This document shows positions 4,437 through 55,361 of a DNA stretch of 55,361 nt, piece by piece. Each line of letters starts with the position of its first letter. Position 1 is the stretch's first letter. Both the position numbers and the translations under genes were made by a program. The DNA comes from an uncultured virus (IMG/VR IMGVR_UViG_3300031992_000037) (lineage: Duplodnaviria > Heunggongvirae > Uroviricota > Caudoviricetes), in IMG/VR virus record IMGVR_UViG_3300031992_000037; one strand, given 5' to 3'. The notes beneath the pieces are model-generated. The model did no database searches, was not told the origin of the DNA, and was given only the letters and a program-made list of their open reading frames with translations.

Positions 4437-4455
4437 CTGATAATCAATTAATTAG

Positions 4456-4528
4456 TTGCCCTGAATGGATTCGAACCATTTCCCCAGCTTTTAGAGAGCC
4501 ATCAACTAACCATTATTATGACAGGGCA
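4456..4528 (-). tRNA. Amber suppressor tRNA (anticodon CUA), Gln-like acceptor stem
   Basis: TGCCCTG-TC-ATAATAATGGTTAGTTGA-TGGCT-CT[CTA]AA-AGCTG-GGGA-AATGG-TTCGAAT-CCATT-CAGGGCA-A. Anticodon at 4492-4494; U1-A72 pair as in tRNA-Gln. Confidence 0.9.
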
Positions 4529-7287: not shown

Positions 7288-8148
7288 TTAATACCAATAA
7301 CCGTTGCCGAAGTATGGATTATATCCATTCCCATAAACTGAAGATGCGGGCATAGCCACAAGGTTTGGATATTGTACCGTTACTGTAGCGGGCTGAGCTG
7401 CTTTAATAGAATTAACCTCTGAAGCAATTGGATTAACCAAATTAGATACAAACGCTTCAATCTGTGCAGTTTGACTTGCATTATCTATCTAACTACGAAG
7501 AGATGTGTTTGCAGCTGTAAGAGCATCAATCTTATTCTACAACTCACGTTCCTTCAAATCACAGAACTCTTTGGTAATTAAGGTAGTCTATGCGGCTATT
7601 GCATCAGTAATACTTCTGGTGTTTCTATCTGCCTGTGAGCCCAATTGATTGGTTTGTTCTATTGTAGCTATTCTAGACTCATAACCCTATTGAGTAGTTA
7701 AAAGTCTATTTTCGCAGCAACATTCACACAACTGACGCTCCAGTGAAGCATTACCAGACTGTATTGAATTAATTACCTATAAACCACTCATACCAACCTA
7801 AGAACCAACAGTAGCTAAGCCTGTACTCAAAGTACTCAAAGCCGATTGGATTGAGTTAATATCAGTATGTAAAGTAGATGAAAGGGTTGATATGGCTTTA
7901 TCATTTCCATTAATACCCTAAATTATCAAATCTCTAGTGGCATCTCCATTAGCCCAAGTAGCAGCACCATTACCGCCACCAAAACCTCCGAAGCCATTAC
8001 CTCCCCAGAGTCCACCAAATAAAATACCTGCAAGGAAACCAAGTATACCGCCTCCCCAGCCATTACCACCAAATCCATTATTTGCAAATGCATACGGTAA
8101 CATAGAGTTGGCGTCTTGTCCAAATACATAAGTTTTTTCTTCTGCCAT
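7288..8148 (-). CDS. Gly-rich TM plus Gln-rich coiled-coil protein with CECCC motif, 286 aa with TAG=Gln
   Basis: Track ORF 7918..8148 continues as ...VGS(Q)VGMSGL(Q)VINSIQSGNASLERQLCECCCENRL...GNGYWY. This is the first gene of the 5352-8148 cassette. Confidence 0.85.
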
Positions 8149-15669: not shown

Positions 15670-16014
15670 TTAATCTTTTTTAAATCTTTCTGATAGGCCT
15701 TCTGCAATTATCGCTTTAACAGAAACCTCATTTAATACCCATAGGTCATGCCCAAAGAACGGTGCTGGGAATACAGCTCGATGATCAAATAAAACATCAT
15801 CTCCAGCTTTTACAAACTCACATTCAGGACCTGCCTCAATAACTTTACCAAAAAATGCAGTATTTTCTAATTTTTCAACTAAACCTGAATCGGGATTAAC
15901 AAAATCCTCTGTCATTTCTACCTCATTTTCTTTTACAATCTTTTTATAAGGATTGTCAAAATAAATCTCAATCAAGAGATTATTCATAATTGGATAAATT
16001 TCTTTCTCTTCCAT
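15670..16014 (-). CDS. groES: GroES-like co-chaperonin
   Basis: IYPIMNNLLI...GKVIEAGPECEFVKAGDDVLF...VLNEVSVKAII. Confidence 0.8.
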   Translation of the reverse strand: MEEKEIYPIMNNLLIEIYFDNPYKKIVKENEVEMTEDFVNPDSGLVEKLENTAFFGKVIEAGPECEFVKAGDDVLFDHRAVFPAPFFGHDLWVLNEVSVKAIIAEGLSERFKKD

Positions 16015-17474
16015 TATTCATTAACAATTAAACAATTTGCACTAATTATATTAGTTGCAGCACTAACTGCATTTTCTAAAGTTTCTTTTACTACTAAGTA
16101 TGGCTCAATAATCCCATTCTCAAAAGCATCTCCAGAAACTCCAGTCCTAATATTTAAAACATCCCAATAATCTTCTACACTTCCACTTGAACTCGTTGCC
16201 TGATCCAATAGGATTTGTGTTGGGGCATATAAAGCCTTCTTTAAAAGTGGAACATTTAAATTCTTAGCAGCTTCTCTTAAAGCTTTACCACATCCAGGAA
16301 GTACCCCTCCTTTTAAAGCACAAGCTGTAGCTGAAATTGCATCTTCATATAAGTCACATCTAGTCTTAGCTTCTGTCTCACTATATCCACCTACGAATAT
16401 TTTAGCAAGCCCACCAGAAAACATTGCAAGACGTCTTCTATGAAATTCATACTCAATCTCAGGGAGTGGATTCTCAAGGATCTGTTTTACCATATACTTA
16501 CGTTCCTCAACGGCCTCTGTATTAGAATTATAGCCTATAAAGGTTGTATCATCTTTTGTAATGATAACTTTATCACAACACATTGAATCACCTAAAACTG
16601 CTTTAATATCTTCTAAAATAGTTTCTCTCATGACTCCAAATTCAGGACTTTGGATTAATCCTGCCTGCATTCGCCCACCTTTGTTTGGATCAAACATATT
16701 GTGATATATCAACATTGTAATAGAAGAATCGAAATCTGGGGCAATTAATAAAAGTGATTTTCCTTGATCAATCGCCTTTTGCCAGATCTCTTTAACTTTT
16801 CTAGTTTCTTCCATTTTAGTTTGGGAGATATATACCTGAACATTATTCAATTCTATATTTCCTTCACTAGTATTGATAAGATATGGGGAAAAGAATCCTG
16901 AATTAATTCGAAAGCCTCTGCTGTACTCTATCCTATCAGTCACGCTCTCACCCTTCTCATATAATACAAGTCCATCTTTTCCAACCTTATCATAAGCTTC
17001 GGCAATTGTTTCACCAATCAACTCATCCCCATTGGCTGACAATGTTGCAACTTTTTTAATATCTTCTTTATTAGAGATCTGCTTTGTATGTGATTTCAAA
17101 TCTTCTAAAACCAAATCCCTCTCTTTAAATAATTTTCTAGAAATTTCTATTGGATTGCCAAAGTTTATATAATCATTTACAATAGCCCTTGTAAGTATTG
17201 CGACGGTACTAGAACCATCTCCGACTTCTTTTGCAGTTTTTACTGAAACTTCTTTAATAAGATCTACACCAGCTTGTATATATGGATCTAGTACTCTAAC
17301 TGCTTCAGAGACGGTCTTTCCATCTTTTGTTATTTTTATCCCAGCAGGATTTTTAATAGCTACTGTTGCTGCATTTGGACCATAAGTACACTGAATTGCA
17401 TCTGTAATTAAATTAACACCCTCTAATAGTTTTTCTCTGGCAATCTCACCAATTAATACACAATCATTATTCAT
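16014..17474 (-). CDS. groEL: GroEL-like chaperonin (486 aa, divergent)
   Basis: TYGPNA, ITKDGKTV, VGDGSST, VATLSANGD, YDKVGKDG, GGVLPGCG, GIIEPYLV. Confidence 0.92.
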   Translation of the reverse strand: MNNDCVLIGEIAREKLLEGVNLITDAIQCTYGPNAATVAIKNPAGIKITKDGKTVSEAVRVLDPYIQAGVDLIKEVSVKTAKEVGDGSSTVAILTRAIVNDYINFGNPIEISRKLFKERDLVLEDLKSHTKQISNKEDIKKVATLSANGDELIGETIAEAYDKVGKDGLVLYEKGESVTDRIEYSRGFRINSGFFSPYLINTSEGNIELNNVQVYISQTKMEETRKVKEIWQKAIDQGKSLLLIAPDFDSSITMLIYHNMFDPNKGGRMQAGLIQSPEFGVMRETILEDIKAVLGDSMCCDKVIITKDDTTFIGYNSNTEAVEERKYMVKQILENPLPEIEYEFHRRRLAMFSGGLAKIFVGGYSETEAKTRCDLYEDAISATACALKGGVLPGCGKALREAAKNLNVPLLKKALYAPTQILLDQATSSSGSVEDYWDVLNIRTGVSGDAFENGIIEPYLVVKETLENAVSAATNIISANCLIVNE

Positions 17475-26268: not shown

Positions 26269-26947
26269 AACTAAAAATTTTTTACAAAATTAAAAATTTT
26301 TTTAAAAAAATAAAAGTCAAAAATAGGCCCCCCGGGGTTTTTAAATGAGGGGGTGTTTAGGTGCAGAAGTTGGGTGTAGATTGGAAGTTTTTGTGAGTTG
26401 TGGGAGCGGGAGGACACCTAGGCAGCATGGCCCCCCGCAAAGCGTATGGGAAAACAATACCCAGCAGGCCTCAGGCCCTGCCGGGTATAATTTTCCCATA
26501 GACACAATTTCGCGGAGGAGCGTGATCGCCTTTCCTGGAAATGGCTGTGTTGCACCAATAGCAGCATGGCTCCGCGGCCTCACGAAATTGTGTCGACATC
26601 CCGACAGGTGACCTGGCGTGCTAACCGACTGGGATGTAAAACAGCACTGCATCTTCGGATGTACCAGGACGGGGCGGTTGGAGACAACCAGACGAAACCG
26701 TGACGGAAGTAGTCTAGTAGAATCATGCAATCGGAGATGGTATCAAAGATTAAGCACTAATTCACAATAGATGTGGAAAGTCTGAATCCCTCTTTAAAGT
26801 GTAAGGAGATGACCGTTGATAAAATGCTTTCAACAAGGTAAGACAAGTACTGCTATAATGAATTCAAACGGGCAATCTTAACTGCCCCAAAGCTCTCTGA
26901 GTTCTGGAATCTTAGTAGGAGAGTTATAATTAATAAAGATACTTGGT

Positions 26948-27358
26948 ATGAAGACATATCAAGAAAATGTTAAAGCATTAATTAGTAAACTTAATGCCTC
27001 ATTTGGCTTTAAGTTTTACTTAGAAGAGATGGCCAATTTTGGCCGTCCCTTCACAATTCTCCGTGAGGGGACTGGATACTGTTTAGATATACAGTATTCA
27101 GAATCTGGGTTTGGAACAACCGACCTGGGCCTTTTTGGGCCCTCGCCAAAGGTTCCAAAACCAACAGACCAATTGCCGGCCATTGCGATAGTGACCGAAA
27201 CGTGGGACGATTGGTACCCACAAATTAAAGACACCAATGTGGAATTCTGTCAAAGAATTCCAATACCGTTTCCGCAATCCCACACCAAAGAGGTGTGGCA
27301 TACGTGCGGCTGTGCGCATACAATACACACCCACACCAGGGTAATTGTGGAGTGCTAG
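26948..27358 (+). CDS. Hypothetical early protein
   Basis: Track ORF; ends in TAG. Confidence 0.5.
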   Translation: MKTYQENVKALISKLNASFGFKFYLEEMANFGRPFTILREGTGYCLDIQYSESGFGTTDLGLFGPSPKVPKPTDQLPAIAIVTETWDDWYPQIKDTNVEFCQRIPIPFPQSHTKEVWHTCGCAHTIHTHTRVIVEC

Positions 27359-27690
27359 CCCTAAGGCCCATCTATGGAGCAGGACACAGTTCGATTCTGT
27401 GTATGGGCCCTATGCCTATGAAACAAGATGGAGTCCCTGCTGGATGCATGCGATTTAACGTCGCCTTGTATCAAGCAAGACTCGAATCCTTGGAGAGTTT
27501 CTTAGGCTCTAATCCGTATGCCGGGGAATACGAACTGGCCTTATGCTGGGGAGTATCTCTGTCCGCGGCAATAGCCACCATGCATAAAATAATGGTTGGG
27601 ATTAGAGCCGGGATACTTCAATCAAAATTCCCAATAAATGGGAAGAAGATTGGAGTAAAAGGAAACTATTATGTCGTATATAAGGCATAA
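27295..27690 (+). CDS. Hypothetical early protein (start uncertain)
   Basis: Track ORF followed by a hairpin. Confidence 0.45.
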   Translation: MAYVRLCAYNTHPHQGNCGVLALRPIYGAGHSSILCMGPMPMKQDGVPAGCMRFNVALYQARLESLESFLGSNPYAGEYELALCWGVSLSAAIATMHKIMVGIRAGILQSKFPINGKKIGVKGNYYVVYKA

Positions 27691-27809
27691 CTCCTGCAGA
27701 GGGATGCGTATTCTGCATTACTCATAACGCATAACGATAGATCTTAGCTATTACAAAACACCTCCTTGTAATAGCCGGACAAGTATAGGAGGTATAAATT
27801 CGACAGACT

Positions 27810-28070
27810 ATGAATATGTATGTCGACATGGCTGTAGAGCCTCACGGCCCTACGTCTGAGAATGACATCGGGATTGCCATTCTACAGGCGTTAGAATCAA
27901 GATTGGAGAGTCCTAATGCTTTCTAGGCATCTCCAATCAAGTACTGTCTGTACGCAAATTCTGATGAGGACATAGCCTATTTGAGATCTTGGATTTGTAG
28001 TAATCTTAGATCTACAAATGGCAAATCTGTCCTATCAGAATTTGACTACGGTCAGTAGTAGGGCTCCTGA
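27810..28070 (+). CDS. Possible hypothetical protein with internal TAG (27924)
   Basis: MNMYVDMAVEPHGPTSENDIGIAILQALESRLESPNAF*ASPIKYCLYANSDED...; open apart from TAG codons. Confidence 0.35.
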
Positions 28071-28519
28071 GTAAGACTCCGAGTGTAATGAGCTCGGGAA
28101 CAGAAATCATCCCTGTATTGATATTGGTTTATCATACAGGCCTAAAGTTGGCCGTACATGGACACCACTATGTGTAGGGCCTAAATTAAAGAGCATCATC
28201 TCTCTAAACTGTCTAGCGGCTTGACCACATCCTTTCGGTACTGGCGGTGAAAATCCAAACCGGGCTAGCAAGCAGCTCATCTTGTAAAACCGAGCCACCT
28301 AAGCATTCATATATGTGAGCTTTCGGCAGCAGCATGTATGAAAGACGGGCATCCTCAATATGATGTAAAACTATTGACATCAGATAAGATGTAAAAATCC
28401 CCACTACCGGGGTGACATGGTACTCGGATTGTTAATTGTCTGGCCGAGCGGACTAGAGCAGTTCTTGACCCACGGGCTGTCGACGATCCACATTTTATGT
28501 GGATATTTTGGGTATTCAT

Positions 28520-29188
28520 ATGGCAACAAAGAATATTATTGCCGAAGTAATTAATGCGAGCAAAGATGCTCGCCAATTTAGTGAGGAAGAGCTTCAAAAG
28601 AAGCTTGCCTCTCTAAATGGGCGAGATGGCTCGCCCCTCAAAGCCGAAGAGGAGCTTTGGCTCCTCCCGGTGCTCCTTCCAAGCTGGAAGTGGAAGGGCA
28701 TTGAGGGTGAATACCCTGCACTTCCAGCCATCAACCAGAACGGACACCTGGTCGTAATAGGTCTTGGAAGCCTCGCTGGAGGTTCTGGGTACCTAGAGGA
28801 TCCAGGCGAAGGAACCTGGGAAATTTCGGAGACCGGATGGTGGTATCTAAAACCGTCTGAGGTCCCCGAAGGTGGTAGCAGGGCCACCAAAGTCTGGGGG
28901 TTGTCGAGGAGTCTTAAAGACTCATTCAACGACAACCTCGAGCTCAGAGGGGTCGTATCCCTCAAAGTAGAGGAGGACGGCTATTGTTACGGGCCGAGGC
29001 TCGTAAAGGCCGGGAGTCCCGACGAGGGACGAGAGAGGGCAAGCCTGCGCTTTAAGCGCAACACCCATTTCTGGGAAGGCAAGGCCCAGCCAATAACCGC
29101 CATTCCGAGCAAACTTAAAAAGTTTGCAGAGAAGCTGGGTTTACCGATGGAATGGCTAAAACCATTCCCAGCTGACTTCTACTGCTGA
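28520..29188 (+). CDS. Hypothetical protein (MATKN family, 222 aa)
   Basis: Track ORF with ATG at 28520; strong terminator downstream. Confidence 0.8.
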   Translation: MATKNIIAEVINASKDARQFSEEELQKKLASLNGRDGSPLKAEEELWLLPVLLPSWKWKGIEGEYPALPAINQNGHLVVIGLGSLAGGSGYLEDPGEGTWEISETGWWYLKPSEVPEGGSRATKVWGLSRSLKDSFNDNLELRGVVSLKVEEDGYCYGPRLVKAGSPDEGRERASLRFKRNTHFWEGKAQPITAIPSKLKKFAEKLGLPMEWLKPFPADFYC

Positions 29189-29230
29189 AATAAAGGATCC
29201 TAGAGAAATCTAGGATCCTTTATTTTTTTT
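29188..29230 (+). terminator. Intrinsic terminator
   Basis: aaataaaggatcctaga-gaaa-tctaggatcctttattt followed by a T run. Confidence 0.85.
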
Positions 29231-29309
29231 GGCGACTCATCATGGCCCCAGGTACTTTATAGCGCATAAAGCGTATTATTATTTTTTTTTAATTTAATAT
29301 TTTTATTGT

Positions 29310-29978
29310 ATGGCAACGAAAAATTCGTATCTGGGTGAAAAATTCAACCCAGCAGATGAGAGCGATCGTGCTCTCAAAGACATGAAGGCACTCGAATCAG
29401 TTAATTTTGAGCGCCAAGCTCCATTAACTGAAGGTGCAACTTATATCCTCCTACCGCAGGAAAATACAGCGGCTGTATATACTATCCCAGGAGTTGGTGA
29501 TAGAGTTTCTCGCCGATTCTGGGCAGTTGAGCTTAACCGAAAGAATGAGCCTGTATCTATACGTAGTATAGGCTATTCATCGATAGCCAAAATGGGATAT
29601 CAAGAAAAGACTTCAGCTCAACCTGCTGCACCAGAGGTTCCTGCATATCAGGATAAAGAAGGAAAATGGCACCCGAAACGTGGGTTAAGTTATGTGTTCT
29701 CATGCGAGGACCACAACTTCATTAAGGCAAACCCAGAGACAATGCTTATGGAGATAAAGACTCCTACGGCATTGAAAGTGATGCGTAGAGCCGAAGTGTG
29801 GGTTGCATCCTTTAAGGATCAAGCATTAGTAGTAAAGGACGGGATGATTGTTCCTGAAGTAGATGACCGATTCGTGTTCTTCAAAACCCTCGTAGCCCCA
29901 ACTGAAGATATAGTTGAGGCTTGCAAAAAGGTCCTTGAAAATGAAGACTCAATTCAAGACTGCCTTTACCTGTTGTAA
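29310..29978 (+). CDS. Hypothetical protein (MATKN family, 222 aa)
   Basis: Track ORF with an AT-rich initiation region. Confidence 0.85.
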   Translation: MATKNSYLGEKFNPADESDRALKDMKALESVNFERQAPLTEGATYILLPQENTAAVYTIPGVGDRVSRRFWAVELNRKNEPVSIRSIGYSSIAKMGYQEKTSAQPAAPEVPAYQDKEGKWHPKRGLSYVFSCEDHNFIKANPETMLMEIKTPTALKVMRRAEVWVASFKDQALVVKDGMIVPEVDDRFVFFKTLVAPTEDIVEACKKVLENEDSIQDCLYLL

Positions 29979-30149
29979 GGGTAGTCTTGAAGGTAACACT
30001 TTTAAAACCGAAAATATTTCATATAAGTGTTATTTTATAAAGGGCCGACCGAAACCAGCAGACGGTGAAATAGTTTATGCCATGTTTCGCCGTCTGTCTG
30101 ATGATTCGGTATTATTATTAATGTATCTCCCTGAATGGTCAGGAGTATA

Positions 30150-30670
30150 AATATTGTTGACCAGGAATTTGTCAGTAGTATTGAAACTGTCAATATGTAG
30201 TTATATAACATCCGCAGTATTATACATTGAAATATGTATAATTGTCTAACAAGTTATGTATAATAAGTTGAAGGTGAAATCTAAATCCTAATCCTGTATA
30301 GTTAGACTACAGGTAGCATGTGCAATACCTATAGGTCATGCTGTGTGTATATACCCTAAGAGTATCTAGTTCCTATGCTTATAAATGGAAATGGTAGGGG
30401 TATTATACACACAAAAAATTGTATTTTGTTAATCAAAAGTAGTTCAGTATTAAAATGAAGCATAGCGGCTGGTAACCGATTAGAGAGTACCAGACATAGA
30501 GTGAAGTCTGTGTCGAAACACATTGCTATAGGAAGACCTCTATAGATAAAAGGACAATGTGTATGCAATTTCCTTACTGCATAAATCCGAGACTGTTGGT
30601 AACAGTTGAACTTCACAGACAGCTATATAGGTGGACTAACCATCCGCATCTAGACTATATAGCTTTTTTA
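30150..30670 (+). ncRNA. Candidate large structured non-coding RNA
   Basis: About 520 nt with no credible ORF and roughly ten stems, closed by a terminator-like hairpin and T run. Confidence 0.45.
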
Positions 30671-30954
30671 CTCATACCACTGTGATAGGTGGTATGGGTC
30701 CTATCTTGCTTTCTGATATACAATCAGTGGACAACTGCTTACTTTGAAGAATAAAGGTATGGCAAGAGCTGCACTCTTACTAGGTTCTTGAGTGATAACT
30801 TCAAAGCGCTGCGTTTATTAGAGCGTGGAAACAGAAATCTAATACTCTATTTCTTATTCAGAGTATAACTGAATATATCCCATCCGATGGTAGTGAAAAC
30901 GATGTAAAACTAAACCTACCAATTTTTATTAACAATCTAAAAATTATTAGTAAT

Positions 30955-31323
30955 ATGCAAACAATTATGTATCAAGATGAAAAAGGATATAGATATATCC
31001 CAGTTTTCCAACCAGAGTTATCAAACTTGTTTGAATATACTCGAAAAAAAGTATATCACATCTATACAGATAATCCTAAATGGTGTGGAAAAATATTACC
31101 AGAAGTAGTAAATGACACATCTATAGACGTAGGTACAAGAACTTATTGGCTGGAGAGAACTAATAACTCCATAGAGTGGGGACTAAAACCTTATCACAAG
31201 ATATCATTTAAAGACATTGAAGAATTAGATGAAGATATATGTGAAATATATAATTTTGAGTCAATTGGAATTGATTCAAGTGGAGTTTATGAATATGAAA
31301 TTATCTATCCCTATGATGATTAG
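30955..31323 (+). CDS. Hypothetical protein (TAG apparently used as stop)
   Basis: Track ORF. Confidence 0.75.
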   Translation: MQTIMYQDEKGYRYIPVFQPELSNLFEYTRKKVYHIYTDNPKWCGKILPEVVNDTSIDVGTRTYWLERTNNSIEWGLKPYHKISFKDIEELDEDICEIYNFESIGIDSSGVYEYEIIYPYDD

Positions 31324-31363
31324 GGATAGATAATTTTTATTAACAATTTAAAAATTAAAAAAT

Positions 31364-31663
31364 ATGAAAAAAGTATATAACGTTGTTCATCACTATGATG
31401 TTGATGGCGGAATTGGATATGCCATCAGTCAAAAAGAAGTTCTATTTATAACTTCTGTCAAAAAAGTGGCAGAAGAATTTATAGATAAATATTCCCATGA
31501 TCATGTCTATGATGTTCCATATTCAGAACTTCATATGGGATTATTAAAAGTGGAAGAATTCAATGTAATAGAATCTTGGGAGGATATCCCCAAAAATATA
31601 ATTGAATGGGGAGATGAAAACAAAAGTGAGACAGACAACTATAATCCGGATGACTATCATTAA
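31364..31663 (+). CDS. Hypothetical protein
   Basis: Track ORF with A-rich initiation region. Confidence 0.8.
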   Translation: MKKVYNVVHHYDVDGGIGYAISQKEVLFITSVKKVAEEFIDKYSHDHVYDVPYSELHMGLLKVEEFNVIESWEDIPKNIIEWGDENKSETDNYNPDDYH

Positions 31664-31721
31664 GATTATGAGTTTTCTATCTCAGACTGGTTAGATTGGT
31701 AATTATTAAAATATATAAATT

Positions 31722-31940
31722 ATGAAGAAGATATTGAATTATATACTGTTGTACGGCACAATAGTGTACAGCTTGCTATTTTTAATGGCGGCAGAGTCAT
31801 TAATCGAAAGCCTTCCCGCAATAGCCTGTATTATGATTTTAATACAGGCAACATTAATATTCTTATGTATAGGAATATTTGGAGATGGAAAGTGGCGTGA
31901 ATATGTACCTAAATGGATAAGTAGGATGGATGAAGATTAA
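31722..31940 (+). CDS. Small two-TM membrane protein
   Basis: Two hydrophobic helices. Confidence 0.75.
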   Translation: MKKILNYILLYGTIVYSLLFLMAAESLIESLPAIACIMILIQATLIFLCIGIFGDGKWREYVPKWISRMDED

Positions 31941-32142
31941 TTAAATCATGATATATCCTTATATAATGAAACCCTTTTTGACTAACCATTTATGGAGGAA
32001 TAAATGGAAGCAGGTAAGAAGACATAATAGAAATTGACCAATTTTCATTATCCTGAGGATCTGGGTACACACAGTATCCTGAAAGTCTTCAATTTGTTCC
32101 TAAGAGAGTGATATCTGTTAGGGGCACTAACCCTGCAAAGGG

Positions 32143-32216
32143 ATTTGTCGTATTAATTTGTGTTTTTCCTGTCGAGAGAGTCTTAATCCTTATTTGGTTG
32201 GAAGATGGTTTAGAAG
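32143..32216 (-). CRISPR. Solitary CRISPR repeat (32180-32216) with adjacent 37-nt spacer-like unit (32143-32179)
   Basis: GTCTTAATCCTTATTTGGTTGGAAGATGGTTTAGAAG. The reverse complement ends AAGGATTAAGAC, like Bacteroidota type III repeats. Identical copy at 33689. Confidence 0.75.
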
Positions 32217-32440
32217 ACATGCGCGTGCGGTTATATAAGTAGTGTGTCTTCCGAGTAGTGTGTCTTGCGAACGACTCGGATGAACGACTACAAATTAACG
32301 TTTTTTTAGTAACTTGTTTGGGCATGTTAAGTCTTGGTGTTGATTTCATGTTCTCGAAGTGTCCGTTTGAGGTATATTCGGACGATTTTTATATTACTAT
32401 TTCAAAAGTGGAGGCACCACGATAAAAACTGTTTATTGTT

Positions 32441-32722
32441 ATGTATTTATTGAACGCATTTAGTTTGCAGATGGTGGAAACACCTGTATCTGTGAAATTT
32501 TCTGAAATAGAAGTGAACGAATTGCCCAAAGAATTAACATCAGCCATCGGGCATGCGGATACTGCTGCTGTTCTTGGTGTTGAATGCAATCGCATAAATG
32601 TTAAATTAGCAAAAGGCGATACCGCATACGTTGCCCAACTGATGGGCGGACGACTCCCCGAAGGGAGCACAACTCTCCCCGAAGGATTCCACTTCAAGTT
32701 TATTAAGGTGGACGTTGAATAA
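32441..32722 (+). CDS. acrIII-1: AcrIII-1 / DUF1874 (STIV B116-like) cA4 ring nuclease
   Basis: MYLLNAFSLQM...SAIGHADTA...NRINVKL..GD...VAQ..GGRLPEG shows the GH, NR and RxxE motifs of the family. Confidence 0.85.
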   Translation: MYLLNAFSLQMVETPVSVKFSEIEVNELPKELTSAIGHADTAAVLGVECNRINVKLAKGDTAYVAQLMGGRLPEGSTTLPEGFHFKFIKVDVE

Positions 32723-32838
32723 ATCCCTTATTCAAAATAATCAATACGTCAAAGAGCTAATAAATAGGATTTTTGACTAAAATGACAAATCATAAATCCT
32801 TAATTAAAAATTACTTATATTTATAAACCTACAATCAA

Positions 32839-33264
32839 ATGCCATTTAATGAGATGTGGGAAAGTTTAGTGAATATGTATAAGAGTACTGTAATGTTTCT
32901 CCGCTCAAATCGGAGAAATCGTCAAACAAAAATGACGAGGGGCGAATATTGTCCAGGAGAGCTTAAAAGTTCTCAGGCAATTCGCCAAATACTTTTTGAT
33001 TTGAGAGGTAAGTTAATTCACTTTCCCAAGGATTCTTGGGTGTACTACATCTTAAGAGACCTTAAGATGGAAGAGTTCCGAAGAGGTGAAATAACCTACT
33101 GGAGATGTTGCCCGTACTTTGAGAGGGTGTACATTAACTTCAATGATGAAGCTAATTGGAACGAACTCCAAAGTACAGGTAAACTCTCCTGGGCTCGGGA
33201 TGAGTATATATCATGGCTAAAAGCTGTGATGCCGCTCCGTTCTGAGATTATCCAGGTAGAGTGA
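32839..33264 (+). CDS. Orphan protein (141 aa) inside the repeat-flanked cassette
   Basis: Track ORF with A-rich initiation region. Confidence 0.7.
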   Translation: MPFNEMWESLVNMYKSTVMFLRSNRRNRQTKMTRGEYCPGELKSSQAIRQILFDLRGKLIHFPKDSWVYYILRDLKMEEFRRGEITYWRCCPYFERVYINFNDEANWNELQSTGKLSWARDEYISWLKAVMPLRSEIIQVE

Positions 33265-33688
33265 TCTCCATCGGAGTTCCCACTACAGCAATGTGAATGG
33301 CAAGAGAGTGGGTGAAAGAGAGTTGCCCGCTGGTCACGTAAGACCACAGTCGAAGGTTACACGGAATCTTAAAGATGTAACCGAGTATTTAAAGTTGGGG
33401 ACAAGTGATTGGTTTTGCTTGTACTTTCTAAATGGGTGTACGCCATTCCGTCGGGAATAGTATTCTACTACCATTCCTTGTAAACGACCCGACGCTAAAT
33501 AATAAACGTTCGACAACGGAAGGACTTGTGCTATCAGGCTGAACGGGCGGAAATATAGCAATCGCATGGGTTAGGTGCGTCCGTGCGGTTGCTTTTTTGT
33601 TATGCACCAAAACGATTTGAACGGATGAAGAGTCTGAAAATTTGGCTTGTCAATGTATCTAATTGGCAAGTTGTAGAACATTGCGGCG

Positions 33689-33762
33689 GTCTTAATCCTT
33701 ATTTGGTTGGAAGATGGTTTAGAAGATTTGTCGTATTAATTTGTGTTTTACCTGTCGAGAGA
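33689..33762 (-). CRISPR. Second solitary CRISPR repeat (33689-33725) followed by a copy of the 37-nt spacer-like unit (33726-33762)
   Basis: Repeat identical to 32180-32216; unit matches 32143-32179 at 36/37. Confidence 0.75.
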
Positions 33763-34034
33763 CAGTAAGATCCTGTTGTGAAACAGTGTCTCTGGCATTT
33801 TAGATGTTAATAATATACGGGTATAGGAGTTTGAATACTCCCATACCTCCTAAAGTAATAAAGTTGTTAAAACTTTGCTGAGGCCGAATATACTCGCTTA
33901 GGCTTTGTTACTTGGGTATAGAGATTTGGTTATCTCTATACCTTCTAATTTAATTGAAGAATTTATTTGTTGTTTATTGGGTTGTTTTGTTGAAGTTTGT
34001 CATGAGGATTACTTAATTGGGGTTAAGTAATCAG

Positions 34035-34063
34035 AACTCTCCCCTGAAATATGGGGAGAGTTT
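34035..34063. terminator. Terminator hairpin downstream of the rep-like gene
   Basis: aactctcccc-tgaaatat-ggggagagtt. Confidence 0.65.
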
Positions 34064-34815
34064 TATAAAACTATATCTTGAAAATTAACTTTATTTTCTT
34101 GTATATGTTTTACCAGTGCATTAATTGTTTTAGATTGATGTTCTAACTTCTCTTGTAATTGTTTATATTTAAGAGATAAATCATCATGTTCTGATTGTAG
34201 AGATTCAATTTTAGAATCTGTTTCTAAGAATTTAAGAGCAATAGTATTGGCGAATTCATTAAAATTATATATTCGCTGGTAATTACATTCTAAATCAGTA
34301 TGCCCATTATCTGGGATTTTTACCAATATATTTTTATCTTCTAAGGATTTCTCATATTTTTGTAAAGTTCTGGGATCTATATTGAGATAATTTGCTAATT
34401 GTTTATTACTATATGTAATAATTCCATTTTGTGCAACTGGATCTTTAAACATAAATTGTTGACTCATTACAATCATCGACTTATCTCTAGAGGATAAATT
34501 AGAATCATTTAGAAAATCAAAAGAAAATATTTCAAATTTATTATAATCATTAAAGGTATATATAGAAGATGTGCCAGGTCTCTTAGTTATATTAATATAT
34601 CCTGCATTTTCTAACCTTTTAAGTCCATTTAAAATAGTTTTTCTATCTAATTCGGAATCTTTTACAATAGTGGAAATTTGTGGATATGCCTGTTTTGTTT
34701 CTAAATTCATATATTTTTTAATACAGGCATAGATATAGGGATCATTTAGTGTTAATCCTTGCTTTTTTAAATCCATATTTGGGATTTGTACGTGCTGTTT
34801 TGATAATTCATTCAT
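34063..34815 (-). CDS. Replication initiator-like protein (tandem winged-HTH, C-terminal coiled coil)
   Basis: AYPQISTIVKDSELDRKTILNGLKRLENAGYI and YSNKQLANYLNIDPRTLQKYEKSLEDKNIL HTHs; iterons upstream. Confidence 0.75.
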   Translation of the reverse strand: MNELSKQHVQIPNMDLKKQGLTLNDPYIYACIKKYMNLETKQAYPQISTIVKDSELDRKTILNGLKRLENAGYINITKRPGTSSIYTFNDYNKFEIFSFDFLNDSNLSSRDKSMIVMSQQFMFKDPVAQNGIITYSNKQLANYLNIDPRTLQKYEKSLEDKNILVKIPDNGHTDLECNYQRIYNFNEFANTIALKFLETDSKIESLQSEHDDLSLKYKQLQEKLEHQSKTINALVKHIQENKVNFQDIVL

Positions 34816-36538: not shown

Positions 36539-37513
36539 ATGAAAATATTAACAGAAAGAGATGTGAATAAGCATGGCTGGGGTATAGTATCGGTAATTAC
36601 ATCCGACATGCTAGAGAAATATGGGTATACACAAATTGGAGATTATGCTTTTTGGGGCGATGATCTTGAATCAATCATAATACCTAATAGTATAACAAAA
36701 ATTGGAATTGGCGCGTTCAGAAATTGTCCTAAACTGACTTCAGTAACAATCCCCAATAGTGTAACAATTATTGACTCTAGGGCTTTTTTAAATTGTAGTA
36801 ATTTAACCTCAATCAAGATTCCAAATAGTGTAACAGGTATTGGTATACATGCTTTTAATGGTTGTTCTAATTTAACTTCAATAGTAGTAGAAGCAGATAA
36901 TCCAAATTATGATAGTAGAAACAATTGCAATGCTATAATAGAGACTGCTACAAACACTCTTATCGCTGGTTGTAAAAATACAATTATTCCCAATAGTGTA
37001 ACAAATATTGGAAGTTTTGCCTTCTATAGCTGTGATGATTTGACATCTATAATAATTCCCGATAATGTAATTAGCATTGGAGATGATGCTTTCTGCAAAA
37101 CAGGTTTGAAATCCATATCTATTCCAAATAGTGTTACAAGCATTGGATATTGTGCTTTTAAGGATTGTAAAATTAACATACCTAAAAAATATGATAGTCT
37201 GGGTAGACTAATTGCATATAAAGGATTTGATTCTAAGATGCAATGTTATGATCATTTTCAATACATTGAAGGACATACTTATAAAACTTCTGAAGCTATA
37301 TTATGTGAATGCGGATTCCACGCTTGTACTAATCCCTTAGATATATTTTCTTATTATTTCGGAAGAATAAATAAAAATGTATATATACATGAGGTATATC
37401 TTGATGATGTAAGTACTGAAAAGGGTACGGATAGTAAGGTTGTATCTAAGAAAATAACTATTGGTCGAAGATTAACCATTGAAGACATAAACAATATAAT
37501 ACAAGAAAAATAA
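36539..37513 (+). CDS. BspA-type leucine-rich repeat (LRR_5) protein with C-terminal AYKGF...GFHAC domain, copy 1
   Basis: 23-aa IPNSVTxIGxxAFxxCxxLTSI repeats. Confidence 0.92.
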   Translation: MKILTERDVNKHGWGIVSVITSDMLEKYGYTQIGDYAFWGDDLESIIIPNSITKIGIGAFRNCPKLTSVTIPNSVTIIDSRAFLNCSNLTSIKIPNSVTGIGIHAFNGCSNLTSIVVEADNPNYDSRNNCNAIIETATNTLIAGCKNTIIPNSVTNIGSFAFYSCDDLTSIIIPDNVISIGDDAFCKTGLKSISIPNSVTSIGYCAFKDCKINIPKKYDSLGRLIAYKGFDSKMQCYDHFQYIEGHTYKTSEAILCECGFHACTNPLDIFSYYFGRINKNVYIHEVYLDDVSTEKGTDSKVVSKKITIGRRLTIEDINNIIQEK

Positions 37514-37560
37514 AAAAACATTTGTATAATTCAAAAACAAAGTAAAAAAAATAAACAAAC

Positions 37561-38409
37561 ATGAAAACATTAACACAAAATAGTGTAATTGAACACGGAT
37601 GGGATAAATTATCAGTTATAACGGCTGATATGATAGAAAAATATAGGTATACACAAATTGGGAAAAATGCTTTTAATCATTGCCATAGCCTTACCTCAAT
37701 TACTATACCTAATAGTGTAACAACCATTGGACTTTATGCTTTCTATGATTGCACTAATCTTACCTTAATAACCATTCCAAATAGTGTAACAAAAATTGGG
37801 GATTATGCTTTCTATAATTGCCGTAGTCTTACCTCAATAACAATACCAAATAGTGTAATAGCCATTGGGTGTTGGACTTTTTATAGATGTAATAATCTTA
37901 CCTCAATTACTATTCCAAATAGTGTAACATACATTGGAAATGGTGCTTTCTATCATTGCAGTAATCTTACCTCTATAATCATACCTAATAGTGTAACAAC
38001 CATTGAAGATGATGCTTTTGCTGATTGTGGAATAAACCTGCCTAAAAAATACGATAATCAAGGTAGGTTAATTGCATATAAGGGATTTGATAAACACATG
38101 CAATGTCGTGGTTTTCAATACATTGAGGGTGAAACCTACGAAACAGATAAAGCTAAGTTATGTGTATGTGGTTTTCATGCTTGTACAAATCCTCTTGACA
38201 TATTTAACTATTATGCTGGTGAAATAAATAATAAAATGTTTATTCACGAAGTGTATCTTGAAGATGTAAGTGGTGAGGAAAAAAATGATAGTAAAGTAGT
38301 TAGTAAGAAAATAACCATAGGTCGAAGATTAACAATTGAAGATATTAATAATATATTACAAGATGAAAGAGTTAACACGAGACAATGTAACCAAACATGG
38401 ATGGAATGA
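37561..38409 (+). CDS. BspA-type LRR protein, copy 2
   Basis: Same architecture as copy 1. Confidence 0.92.
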
Positions 38410-39184
38410 ACTATCGGTTATTACAGCCGATATGATAAAGGAATATGGCTATACTTCTATTGGAGAATACGCTTTCTATAATTGTAAAAATCTAGTTTCA
38501 ATAACCTTACCAAATAGTATAACGAATATTAGAAGAAGTGCTTTTTTTAATTGTTATAAATTAGCCTTTATAACAATTCCTAATAGTGTAATCAGTATTG
38601 GAAATTATGCTTTCACATTTTGTCACAGCTTGACTTCGGTTATTATTCCTAATAGCGTAATAAATATTGGAAATAATGCATTCACTGGTTGTAATAGTCT
38701 AACCTCAGTCACAATTGGTAATGGTACAACAGGCATTGGAGATTGTACTTTTGCTTTTTGCAATAATCTTATTTCTATTATCATTCCTAATAGTATAAAA
38801 ATTATTGGATTTCGTGCTTTTGGAGGTTGTAAAATAAAGTTGCCTAAAAAATATGATGCCCAAGGTAGATTAATTGCTTACAAAGGATTTAATAAAAACA
38901 TGCAGTGTCGTAATTTTCAATATGCGGAAGGACAAACTTATGAGACATACAAGGCGGAATTGTGTAAATGTGGCTTCCATGCCTGTACTAATCCTCTTGA
39001 TGTATTTACTTATTATGCAGGTGAAATAGGTAAAGATATGTTTATCCATGAAGTATATCTTGAAGAAGTGAATGATGAAGAAGATAGTGATAGCAAGATA
39101 GTTGCTAATAAAATAACTATTGGTAAACGTTTAACAATCAAAGATATTAATAAAATTATACAAAATGAAAATATTAACAGATGA
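38363..39184 (+). CDS. BspA-type LRR protein, copy 3
   Basis: ATG at 38363 (MKELTRD) aligns with the paralog starts. Confidence 0.92.
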
Positions 39185-39910
39185 TGAGGTAATTAAAAAT
39201 GAATGGAATAAAAAGTCCATTATCACCTCCCATATGATAGAAAAATATGGATACACACAAATTGGAGATCATGCTTTTTTATTTGCCACAATCTTACCTC
39301 TATAACTCTTCCAGATAATATAACTAGTATTGAAGCTTATGCTTTCTATGGTTGTAACAGGCTGACTTCGGTCACAATTGGCAATAGAGTAACAAGTATT
39401 GGAAAGTGTGCATTCGGAAATTGTAAAAAGCTTGCATCTATAAATATACCAAATAGTATAATAAGTATTGGAGATTATGCTTTCCATGATTGCTATGGGC
39501 TTACTTCGATTGTTATATCAAATAATGTAACAAATATTGGATGTGGTGCGTTTAGAACAGGTAAATTAATAATTCCTTTAAAAAAATATGATAATCTAGG
39601 CAGGTTAATTGCTTATAAAGGTTTTCGTAGAGATATGACTTGTCTTGGTTTTCAATACGAAGAGGGAAAGACCTTCGAAACAAATAGAGCAAAGTTATGC
39701 GAGTGTGGATTTCATGCTTGTATCAACCCATTGGATGTTTTCAATTACTATTATGGGAAAATAAATGAAGATATAGTTATTCATGAAGTATATCTTGAGG
39801 GCGTATCAGAAGATTTAAGCCCATTTTTATATGATAGTAAGGTCGTTGCAAAGAAAATCACTATTGGCAAAAGATTGTCTATAGAAGACATTAATAAAAT
39901 TATACAATAA
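39165..39910 (+). pseudogene. BspA-type LRR protein, copy 4, frameshifted at a T run (about 39275-39284)
   Basis: MKILTDDEV...GDHAF, then continues one base out of frame as an open LRR plus C-terminal domain (track ORF 39635..39910). Confidence 0.85.
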
Positions 39911-39920
39911 AATAAAAATT

Positions 39921-45394: not shown

Positions 45395-45697
45395 ATGACA
45401 GATTACACAGGAAAGAAAGTAATTGTCCGCTCGCACGGAGCGGGAGTGTTCTTCGGAACGTTGAAAGAATTTGATGCCGCCAACGGTATCGTAGAGTTAA
45501 CAAACTGCCGCCGTGTGTGGTACTGGAGCGGTGCAACCTCGCTGTCCCAACTCGCTTGCGAGGGCGTTAAGAATGCCGGAGGCAGCAAGATAACGCAAGA
45601 GGTTGCGTCTATATGCGTTACACAAGTTTTGGAAATTATTCCATGCACGGAAGAGGCTATTGAAAATCTAAATCGTGTGCCGGTATGGAAGATGTAA
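45395..45697 (+). CDS. Sm-like/DUF6948-like protein
   Basis: GKKVIVRSHGAGVFFG...RRVWYWSGA.SLSQLA.EG. Confidence 0.85.
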   Translation: MTDYTGKKVIVRSHGAGVFFGTLKEFDAANGIVELTNCRRVWYWSGATSLSQLACEGVKNAGGSKITQEVASICVTQVLEIIPCTEEAIENLNRVPVWKM

Positions 45698-46404
45698 TTA
45701 AACGCTTTTTAGCAGTAGAATATGGCTATGGTTATGGTTATGGCTTTGGCTATGGCTATGGCTATGGCGATGGCGATGGCTCTGGCGATGGCTCTGGCTC
45801 TGGCTATAGCGATGGCGATGGCGATGGCTCTGGCGATGGCTCTGGCTTTGGCTATAGCGATGGCTATGGCTATGGTTATGGCTCTGGCTTTGGCTATGGC
45901 TCTGGCGATGGCGATGGCTCTGGCGATGGCGATGGCTCTGGCATAAAATCTTTTTGTGGGCAAAAAGTCTATATCATAGATAGCGTGCAAACTCTTATCG
46001 ATAGTATACATGGCAATTATGCAAGAGGTGCGATACTCAAATCTGATTTGACTACCGAGTCTTGCTACATAGCTAAGGTAGGCAATTTCTTTGCTCACGG
46101 CACTACGCTCAAGCAGGCGTTTGCAGACGCACAAGAAAAGTACGACAGGAACAGATCTATAAAAGAACGCATTGCAGATTTCGTGCAGCAATACCCGACA
46201 CTTGACACAAAGTGCAAGGGCGCAGACCTCTTCCGGTGGCACAATGTCCTAACGGGCTCGTGCCAATTAGGCAGAGAGCAGTTTTGCAACGAGCGTGGCA
46301 TTAACCCCGATACCGTTACGATGACTGTAAGAGAGTTTATAGAACTGACAAAAAACGCCTACGGCAGTAAGGCAATCCTACTACTGCGTGAAGCGTATAA
46401 CTAA
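45685..46404 (+). CDS. Protein with Gly-X dipeptide repeat tract (GYGDGSG) and conserved C-terminal domain
   Basis: 6-nt GGCxxT repeat at 45721-45942; C-terminal FAHG...WHNVLTGSC..GR. Confidence 0.85.
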   Translation: MEDVIKRFLAVEYGYGYGYGFGYGYGYGDGDGSGDGSGSGYSDGDGDGSGDGSGFGYSDGYGYGYGSGFGYGSGDGDGSGDGDGSGIKSFCGQKVYIIDSVQTLIDSIHGNYARGAILKSDLTTESCYIAKVGNFFAHGTTLKQAFADAQEKYDRNRSIKERIADFVQQYPTLDTKCKGADLFRWHNVLTGSCQLGREQFCNERGINPDTVTMTVREFIELTKNAYGSKAILLLREAYN

Positions 46405-47538: not shown

Positions 47539-47964
47539 ATGAAACAGTTACAAAGCGATTTTACAACCCCTGAGCAGTCAAAGAGACTGTTAGAATTAGG
47601 GCTTCCCGCTGATAGCGCGAATATGCATTATAAACAATATTCTGAAGCGGTTGTTTATGTAGGTGAAGTCGGAGATGTTCCACAACCGAAAACATATTAC
47701 ATTCATGAGCCTGAATTAAGGCACATTAATCCAGAAGGAACATGGACTTACAAAGATGGAGAAAAGATGAATTTAAGTGGAAAGTATGATGAATTAAGAA
47801 AAACAGACATTCCTTGTTGGTCAGTCGGTAGGCTGATTAAGATATACTTTATTTGCAGTTATCAGTCCGAAATTTTAATAGATTACACAATGGAAGATTT
47901 AGTTGATTATCTTGTATCACTCTTTGAGAGCGTAGCAATGAACTTTTCAAAATTGGAGGAATAA
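47539..47964 (+). CDS. 'LQSDFTTPEQS' family hypothetical protein
   Basis: Paralog of 54988..55347 (PCWSVGRLI, FSKLE). Confidence 0.85.
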   Translation: MKQLQSDFTTPEQSKRLLELGLPADSANMHYKQYSEAVVYVGEVGDVPQPKTYYIHEPELRHINPEGTWTYKDGEKMNLSGKYDELRKTDIPCWSVGRLIKIYFICSYQSEILIDYTMEDLVDYLVSLFESVAMNFSKLEE

Positions 47965-54995: not shown

Positions 54996-55347
54996 TATGA
55001 GAAAACTGCAAAATAATTTTACTACCTCTGAACAATCAGAACAACTTCTTAAATTAGGAGTGCCTGCTGATAGTGCTGATATGTATTATAAGCGTACGAT
55101 GCTTGATCCTTACATATTTACTCTTGGTGTTCGTTTTTCTGTATATGCAGAAGTAGAAGATATAGTTCCTTGTTGGTCTGTAGGCCGACTGATAGAAATA
55201 TTAAGGATTTGTGTAACTGATGAAGAAGAAATAGTTGAAATAATGGAAAATCTTATATATTGGACACTATTAGACCTTACAGATTTTTTATTACAAACAT
55301 ATCAAGAGTATAAAGAGGTTATTGATTTTTCAAAACTGGAGGATTGA
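54988..55347 (+). CDS. 'LQNNFTTSEQS' family hypothetical protein
   Basis: Paralog of 47539; another copy appears to start at 55350 (MKQL). Confidence 0.85.
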   Translation: MINMRKLQNNFTTSEQSEQLLKLGVPADSADMYYKRTMLDPYIFTLGVRFSVYAEVEDIVPCWSVGRLIEILRICVTDEEEIVEIMENLIYWTLLDLTDFLLQTYQEYKEVIDFSKLED

Positions 55348-55361
55348 GTATGAAACAATTA

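Follow-up and report, generated by a model that had tools for sequence, protein, structure and literature searches.

An acrIII-1 gene bracketed by CRISPR repeats and a duplicated phage sequence in a large TAG-recoding phage

We found a putative type III anti-CRISPR gene, acrIII-1, within a cassette of the order A-R-cargo-R-A', in which a 37-nt sequence (A) is followed by a 37-nt CRISPR repeat (R), 1472 bp of cargo, a second, identical R and a second copy of A (A') with one mismatch. Circular permutation of cargo-R-A-R, with the opening at A, gives this layout, and we estimate with a probability of roughly 0.55 that it was made by one crossover between protospacer A in the phage and a donor carrying R-A-R. 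An attack on the phage was most likely turned into protection by recombination with a CRISPR memory unit aimed at A. This mechanism is likely but unproven, and it rests on one phage lineage and one low-depth contig of the empty site. Sequence alone cannot separate the crossover from a target duplication or a cointegration, because all three leave the same string.

The window, that is, the whole stretch of 55,361 nucleotides analyzed here, carries the left copy of A at 32143..32179 (+ strand) and R1, the repeat on the leader side, at 32180..32216 (- strand; assigned to a Bacteroidales type III-associated family with an nhmmer E of 5e-8). R2 lies at 33689..33725 (- strand) and A' at 33726..33762 (+ strand). 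The mismatch between A and A' is at position 25, with T in the left copy and A in the right copy. The period is 1509 from R to R and 1583 from A to A', and the insert between the two copies of A amounts to 1546 bp. Every other site in the window differs from R and from A by at least 14 mismatches. The first-pass annotation had described this layout, a lack of cas genes and a hairpin formed by the 3' end of A' with the right flank. The layout is confirmed at exact coordinates, the hairpin folds at -16.0 kcal/mol, and no cas gene was matched among the 12 window ORFs compared with Pfam or the 12 window proteins compared with PHROGs.

The cargo has a GC content of 0.406, compared with 0.311 and 0.303 in the flanks. 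It begins with a non-coding left arm (32217..32440), which contains a small terminator-like hairpin (32364-32384, + strand) and is not leader-like by global alignment. Then follow the acrIII-1 gene (32441..32722, + strand, 93 aa), a motif shared with CRISPR leaders and rRNA spacers that faces R1 (32734..32757, - strand), a gene for an uncharacterized protein (32839..33264, + strand, 141 aa from the first ATG) and an intrinsic-terminator-like hairpin of 15 pairs and a T run (33557..33600, + strand), which would shield A' from read-through. The cargo ends facing R (33678-33688 and 32217-32225) resemble a short imperfect direct repeat, a likeness that was equalled by 0.6% of 2847 random pairs from the cargo; this repeat may be a trace left when R entered the donor. 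An Rfam scan of 31900-34100 gave nothing convincing, with three weak matches, all outside the cassette. Moreover, a promoter scan stayed at chance level (7 found, 7.0 expected), and no Bacteroidetes -7 box was seen inside the cassette.

Depth in sequencing run X1 is the same for the cargo contig (21.3) as for its flanks (20.4 and 19.9), and the flanking contigs continue from A into R on the left and from R into A' on the right. Both observations speak against an assembly artefact, in which the phage would hold only A-R-A' or a single A and a separate R-containing circle would have been wrongly joined to it. In favor of such an artefact, the Logan contigs break at R and none spans the junctions, so that the X1 contigs alone cannot prove them, and the cargo contig from an RNA run is a closed loop. 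However, the full layout is present with 100% identity over 8,020 bp in a 158,651-bp JGI contig (probably the source of the window and so not independent), records of the acr protein come from JGI, Logan and ENA, and a repeat of about 37-38 nt should be shorter than typical reads. We therefore regard an artefact as extremely improbable. Contigs were mapped for four of the six runs (X1, X3, X5 and X6); X2 shares its sample with X1, and X4 with X3.

The origin of A is suggested by a contig from run X5, which belongs to another study (437 nt, depth 6.65). It links 32148 to 33749, skipping 1600 positions. It matches the right flank at about 95% identity and continues through the 3' half of A', after which there are 13 other letters and then 21 matching letters that end inside the left A. 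The site thus holds one shortened, diverged A, with R and cargo absent, and at the variable position it carries the base of A'. In X5 and X6, depth is zero in all nine bins from 32170 to 33672, and the flanks are patchily covered; as X5 contains only 0.07 and X6 only 0.05 of the words sampled, absence was judged from the joining contig and not from missing coverage. The empty site is a single low-depth contig whose left match is only 21 letters long. Together with the pairing of the A' 3' end with the right flank, it indicates that A is native phage DNA and the R-cargo-R block an insertion, as the first-pass annotation had supposed; the single-A site that this predicts in relatives was thus found, in this one contig. 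A second indel occurs nearby (33819-33913): 95 bp are missing from the X5/X6 relatives, eight letters fit either side, and the segment contains a hairpin and an 11-mer recurring at 31033. Database searches returned little for these sequences: exact R and part of A had no matches in IMG/VR; A matched four stretches in JGI metagenomes, two of them the identical contig and two by chance; and A' with its flank gave one IMG/VR match without wider similarity.

The carrier is a phage whose terminase and portal proteins match PHROG families, and the records nearest to the terminase include crAss-like phages at less than 45% identity. A search of IMG/VR found no relatives of the flanking proteins. The runs that best match the window come from sheep gut. 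Coding density in the window from 1 to 26 kb rises sharply when TAG is read through; the minus-strand late region (1-26300) reads through TAG under table 15, a tRNA with a CTA anticodon lies at 4455-4528, and to the right of 26.4 kb coding is good under table 11. The stretch 26300-32000, at the strand switch, is strongly folded, gene-poor and GC-rich (0.458 for 26.3-30 kb); it is possibly a genome end or the region that enters first. In RNA run X3, the contig reaching 30619 has a depth of 471. Elsewhere in the window there are four tandem paralogous genes with 69-nt repeats (36539-39918), the first of which encodes a BspA-type leucine-rich-repeat protein with DUF7666; a 12/18-nt tandem repeat in frame within a 239-aa ORF (45675-45986); and a 486-aa protein that looks by eye like a GroEL-type chaperonin (16014-17474). 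As A lies about 6 kb from the strand switch at 26.3 kb, we place it, and with it the insertion site, in what would be the early region of this large, TAG-recoding phage, probably one of Bacteroidales. Genes lie upstream of A on the + strand, and our scan found no + strand terminator between them and A. According to PMC7515739, effective type III spacers target early-gene transcripts.

We then consider the repeat itself. A relaxed repeat pattern retrieved 50 genome loci, mostly titled as Bacteroidales or other Bacteroidota, and many of them are arrays. Of the 139 ORFs at 14 of these loci, 81 were scanned; cas1 and cas2, primase-polymerase type B, type III RAMPs and TIGR02221 effectors are among the genes beside the repeats. 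In locus L066, TIGR03986, TIGR04423 and TIGR02221 scored above the cut-off and Cas10 below it; in L064, Csm4 scored above it. RAMP genes are present in three of five genomes. The claimed resemblance of R to Bacteroidota type III repeats is thus borne out by the array family and its neighboring cas genes. The search of Bacteroidota genomes succeeded in finding a type III-associated family and failed to find R itself: the closest host repeats have 5-6 mismatches from R, no exact host copy was found, and none of the 401 sampled genomes (family of G001, Bacteroidales) has a repeat within three mismatches. In X1, a contig of depth 14.9 contains R-like repeats, probably not exact R, around a different 36-nt spacer (joint 33728 to 33689), so a host array of the R family is present in that sample; this spacer has no match in the window.

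Orientation could be read from the host arrays. The more degenerate repeat is left-most in 17 of 30 arrays and right-most in 3 (equal in 10), and the conserved leaders lie on the right. It follows that transcription of the arrays reads R as its reverse complement, with ATTAAGAC at the end, and the crRNA would then consist of the tag and the reverse complement of A, matching + strand transcripts. Spacers of the family are mostly 33-39 nt long, a range that includes the 37 nt of A. In length and strand, A therefore agrees with a working type III spacer. A host spacer at L057 matches phage + strand genes at 55322-55353 (29/32) in the same geometry, which hints at the host group of the phage. This locus (7929-8071) is a repeat-spacer-repeat-spacer at a contig end in a Paludibacteraceae MAG in which no RAMP gene was found; the spacer covers the ribosome-binding region of the phage genes at 55322-55353 and also matches 19/19 at 47942-47960.

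The length of A weighs on the other side as well. Off-target insertions by Cas1-Cas2, termed "neo-CRISPR", produce a repeat-length target duplication around the insert. A might be such a duplication, never having been a spacer, around an inserted R-bounded piece; this could have taken a single step, or an A-R-A scar could have formed first and then recombined, R x R, with a circle carrying one repeat. A is exactly as long as R, and this is better predicted by a Cas1 target duplication than by a spacer origin, since only about 23% of the family spacers (146 of 647) are 37 nt long, with 173 of 647 at 36 nt (overlapping loci not de-duplicated). Moreover, target duplication does not require recombination over short homology, whereas the crossover had only 24-37 bp on offer. 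However, the insert would have to start and stop exactly with R, and our 1546-bp insert is bounded by true repeats and is not spacer-sized; no published 1.5-kb insert of this kind was found. Neither the type III-effective orientation of A nor the leader motif facing R1 is predicted by this route. We consider it unlikely.

Another Cas1-Cas2 reaction would be a cointegration, in which the integrase joins the two 3' ends of a nicked, still-attached protospacer to a 1509-bp circle at its one repeat. A and R would then both be copied by a strand-displacing polymerase such as the CRISPR-associated primase-polymerase. The product would correspond to a Tn3-type cointegrate, in which A takes the part of the element and R that of the duplicated target. 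This would give A-R-cargo-R-A in one step with both pairs near-identical, and a primase-polymerase type B gene adjoins cas1 in 4 of the 14 R-family loci (L035, L070, L060 and L037); CRISPR-associated primase-polymerases show strand displacement from a nick (PMC8211822). In addition, a 1539-nt RNA-library contig (1509+30) closes the cargo and one R on itself with A uncovered. The same loop, however, is expected equally from two collapsed repeats in a k=31 graph, and since it shows neither circularity, strand nor Cas6 cutting, we did not count it as support. A literature search on Cas1-Cas2 cointegrates found no such reaction, and the A/A' mismatch would have to be later. The cointegration is quite unlikely in our judgment. 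A broader speculation, which we also hold to be unlikely but a little less so, is that CRISPR adaptation can fuse two replicons, here an acr-carrying, repeat-bearing circle and the phage at a sampled protospacer. If this were true, the fusion would occur via Cas1-Cas2 and primase-polymerase or by spacer uptake with immediate recombination; the circles would be integrase-less mini-elements that use host spacer acquisition to find and enter phages; and their insertion would rewrite the target as "self" for type III immunity.

The first cargo gene was assigned to DUF1874/AcrIII-1 in the first-pass annotation, and this holds: its product matches PF08960 with 34.9 bits against a cut-off of 26, and in the alignment to 2x4i, N8, S11, H47, T50, R66, Q81 and R85 are identical, S49 is replaced by D and N13 by Q. 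Thus, of the nine side chains named for SIRV1 gp29 as catalytic or ligand-binding, seven are kept, including the catalytic histidine (residue list as given in 10.1101/778746, with which the 2x4i numbering of the named residues agrees). The catalytic His (His38 in our protein) is invariant in all 11 sequences. The product is thus probably an AcrIII-1-type ring nuclease with an intact predicted active site. AcrIII-1 homologues of the viral contigs L012, L016, L017 and L024 sit among repeated promoter-like modules.

The genomic setting of the acr gene is that of a mobile element (terminase and portal in the window) and not of a cas locus, and the relatives of the gene bear on where the donor came from. 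One possible donor is a host locus, in which the cargo would have stood between two host arrays as a crn2-type region; recombination of the repeats would loop out an R-A-R-cargo circle, which would recombine with the phage at A as in the preferred crossover, and the gene would have been captured from the host. Array-leader-gene-array layouts of 1-2 kb do occur in hosts (cas2 in L064 and a TIGR02221 gene in L066), Crn2 genes are reported in type III loci (PMC8284326), and the cargo contains a leader motif. On the other hand, the closest acr relatives found are on viral contigs (73-77% identity), among 401 Bacteroidales genomes a single one gave a match, which was partial and lay away from R, the acr gene of a related large phage (L007) is close to the same HTH replication gene but has no R with it, and the RNA of the second ORF is folded as strongly as the phage's own early region. 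A host locus is thus a very unlikely donor, and a mobile element is likelier because the closest acr relatives found are phage genes.

The second cargo gene had been called an orphan ORF, which is not strictly so, as its product belongs to a small unnamed family, with members on contigs of up to 79 kb. Its homologues start at Met14, which would give a protein of 128 aa. The predicted structure is confident (pLDDT 86.5), and the fold matches are weak and winged-helix-like, with a best Z of 4.6; no match exceeded this value or reached the E threshold of 0.001, and this absence is no proof of a new fold. No match was found in INPHARED, Pfam or PHROGs and no usable one among the Atlas features, the protein is absent from all 401 Bacteroidales genomes, and its relative P0015 gave no viral-contig match as a query. 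One viral-contig match of the gene 2 product (32% over 41 aa) was rejected as weak, since the family profile did not recover it. The RNA of gene 2 is strongly folded (z about -8 to -10), but so is the phage's own region at 26.4-32 kb, where 7 of 13 tiles have z values of -5 to -9; a viroid-like replicon was therefore dropped as an explanation.

The leader motif was found in 9 of 15 leaders and scores 26.8 bits in the cargo, compared with 12.7 for the next-best site in the window. In the 50 host loci, 14 of 21 motif sites are 114-127 nt from the repeat, five of these outside the training set. The cargo motif faces R1 as in host leaders, but it is 532 nt away, about 400 nt farther than the host spacing, and acr lies between. 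The DNA that adjoins R1 is itself unlike a leader (score 25.6 by global alignment, against a background mean of 38.5 and 36-73 for true leaders). Four of the 15 other genomic motif sites are in 16S-23S spacers. BoxA antiterminators sit in such spacers, and we take the cargo motif to be boxA-like. An R-like remnant upstream of acr in L008 was not significant (E 0.53).

From these observations the crossover route can be put together as follows. The donor would most likely have been another phage's early region, or a small circle from it, carrying acrIII-1 and a leader-linked CRISPR repeat. Host Cas1-Cas2 would have acquired A from this phage lineage and integrated it as a spacer, so that it stood between two identical repeats (R-A-R), and the crRNA from R-A-R would match the + strand early transcript of the phage. 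A single spacer x protospacer crossover left of position 25 would then open the donor and yield A-R-cargo-R-A'; such a crossover predicts the A' base in an empty-site relative, as seen. The donor could have been a 1583-bp circle beforehand or have been trimmed afterwards. Spacer uptake by viral mini-arrays (PMC6858448) and spacer-protospacer recombination (PMC8616872) are both reported, and uptake into the leader-linked repeat of a mobile element followed by such recombination is the simplest route made of reported steps. The repeat identity, the spacer length, the orientation, the side on which the leader motif lies and the side that carries the phage allele each fit it, if weakly. The first-pass annotation had proposed the R-A-R crossover; the repeat family, the native A and the spacer length and orientation agree with it, but no donor came to light: IMG/VR, JGI metagenomes, phage and plasmid records and the 401 genomes showed neither R-A-R nor a circle nor a source locus, the cargo has no match in phage and plasmid records, and none of 10 long repeat gaps of host loci (some duplicated across overlapping loci) has an X-R...R-X layout.

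The cassette would offer three layers of escape. First, the transcribed left A now precedes the eight bases of the repeat, a "self" anti-tag that should not activate Cas10: crRNA-tag pairing is 8/8 for the left A flank, which is R, and 2/8 for the native flank of A'. According to PMC11127173, tag-anti-tag pairing prevents Cas10 activation and not Cas7 cutting. Second, the copy of A with the native, activating flank would sit behind the terminator. Third, AcrIII-1 would degrade cA4. Here the timing of expression matters, as one AcrIII-1 homologue that is expressed late fails as an anti-CRISPR in native infection (10.1101/2023.01.10.523387).

The known parts of this arrangement are AcrIII-1, mini-arrays, solitary repeats beside acr (PMC10651486) and spacer-protospacer recombination. 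The protein itself is no different from the AcrIII-1/DUF1874 proteins described in 10.1101/778746, and the novelty is its way into the genome. In the literature searched, which included few subscription journals, we found neither the permuted layout, nor an acr gained in this way, nor escape by anti-tag conversion; the solitary-repeat tables of PMC10651486 might list the locus. Spacer-protospacer recombination between phages and CRISPR loci was described by Varble et al. 2019 and Watson et al. 2018, as cited in the review PMC8616872. Like our cassette, it joins phage DNA to repeat-flanked DNA by a spacer x target crossover. According to the review, it yields transducing particles with host CRISPR-cas DNA, whereas here a 1.5-kb acr cargo is fixed in the phage genome with both junctions present.

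Viral mini-arrays (Medvedeva et al. 2019, PMC6858448; PMC11656645), as these papers describe them, resemble the cassette in that a single phage-matching spacer goes with two repeats and cas genes are lacking; their leader element may have a counterpart in the leader motif of the cargo. In contrast, our layout is the circularly permuted A-R...R-A with no intact R-A-R, and the "spacer" is the carrier's native DNA: repeat-spacer-repeat exists only in the inferred circular form, and A is not directed against another virus, as it would be in the inferred donor. Racr are small RNAs from solitary repeats that bind Cas6/Cas7 and inhibit immunity. Racr and solitary repeat units (Camara-Wilpert et al. 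2023, PMC10651486) resemble the cassette in having a host-type repeat less than 1 kb from a viral acr, each R being solitary locally; the main text of that paper does not contain the term "type III". The cassette differs in that two identical repeats bracket the cargo and each abuts the duplicated target.

Acquisition of acr genes by phages has mostly been inferred from gene neighborhoods. In the present case the orientation and both junctions can be read, and so can a probable empty site. The suggested route is that an anti-CRISPR reaches a phage through homology provided by the CRISPR memory of that phage, and the predicted escape trick is that a repeat beside the protospacer makes the viral transcript read as "self" to Cas10.
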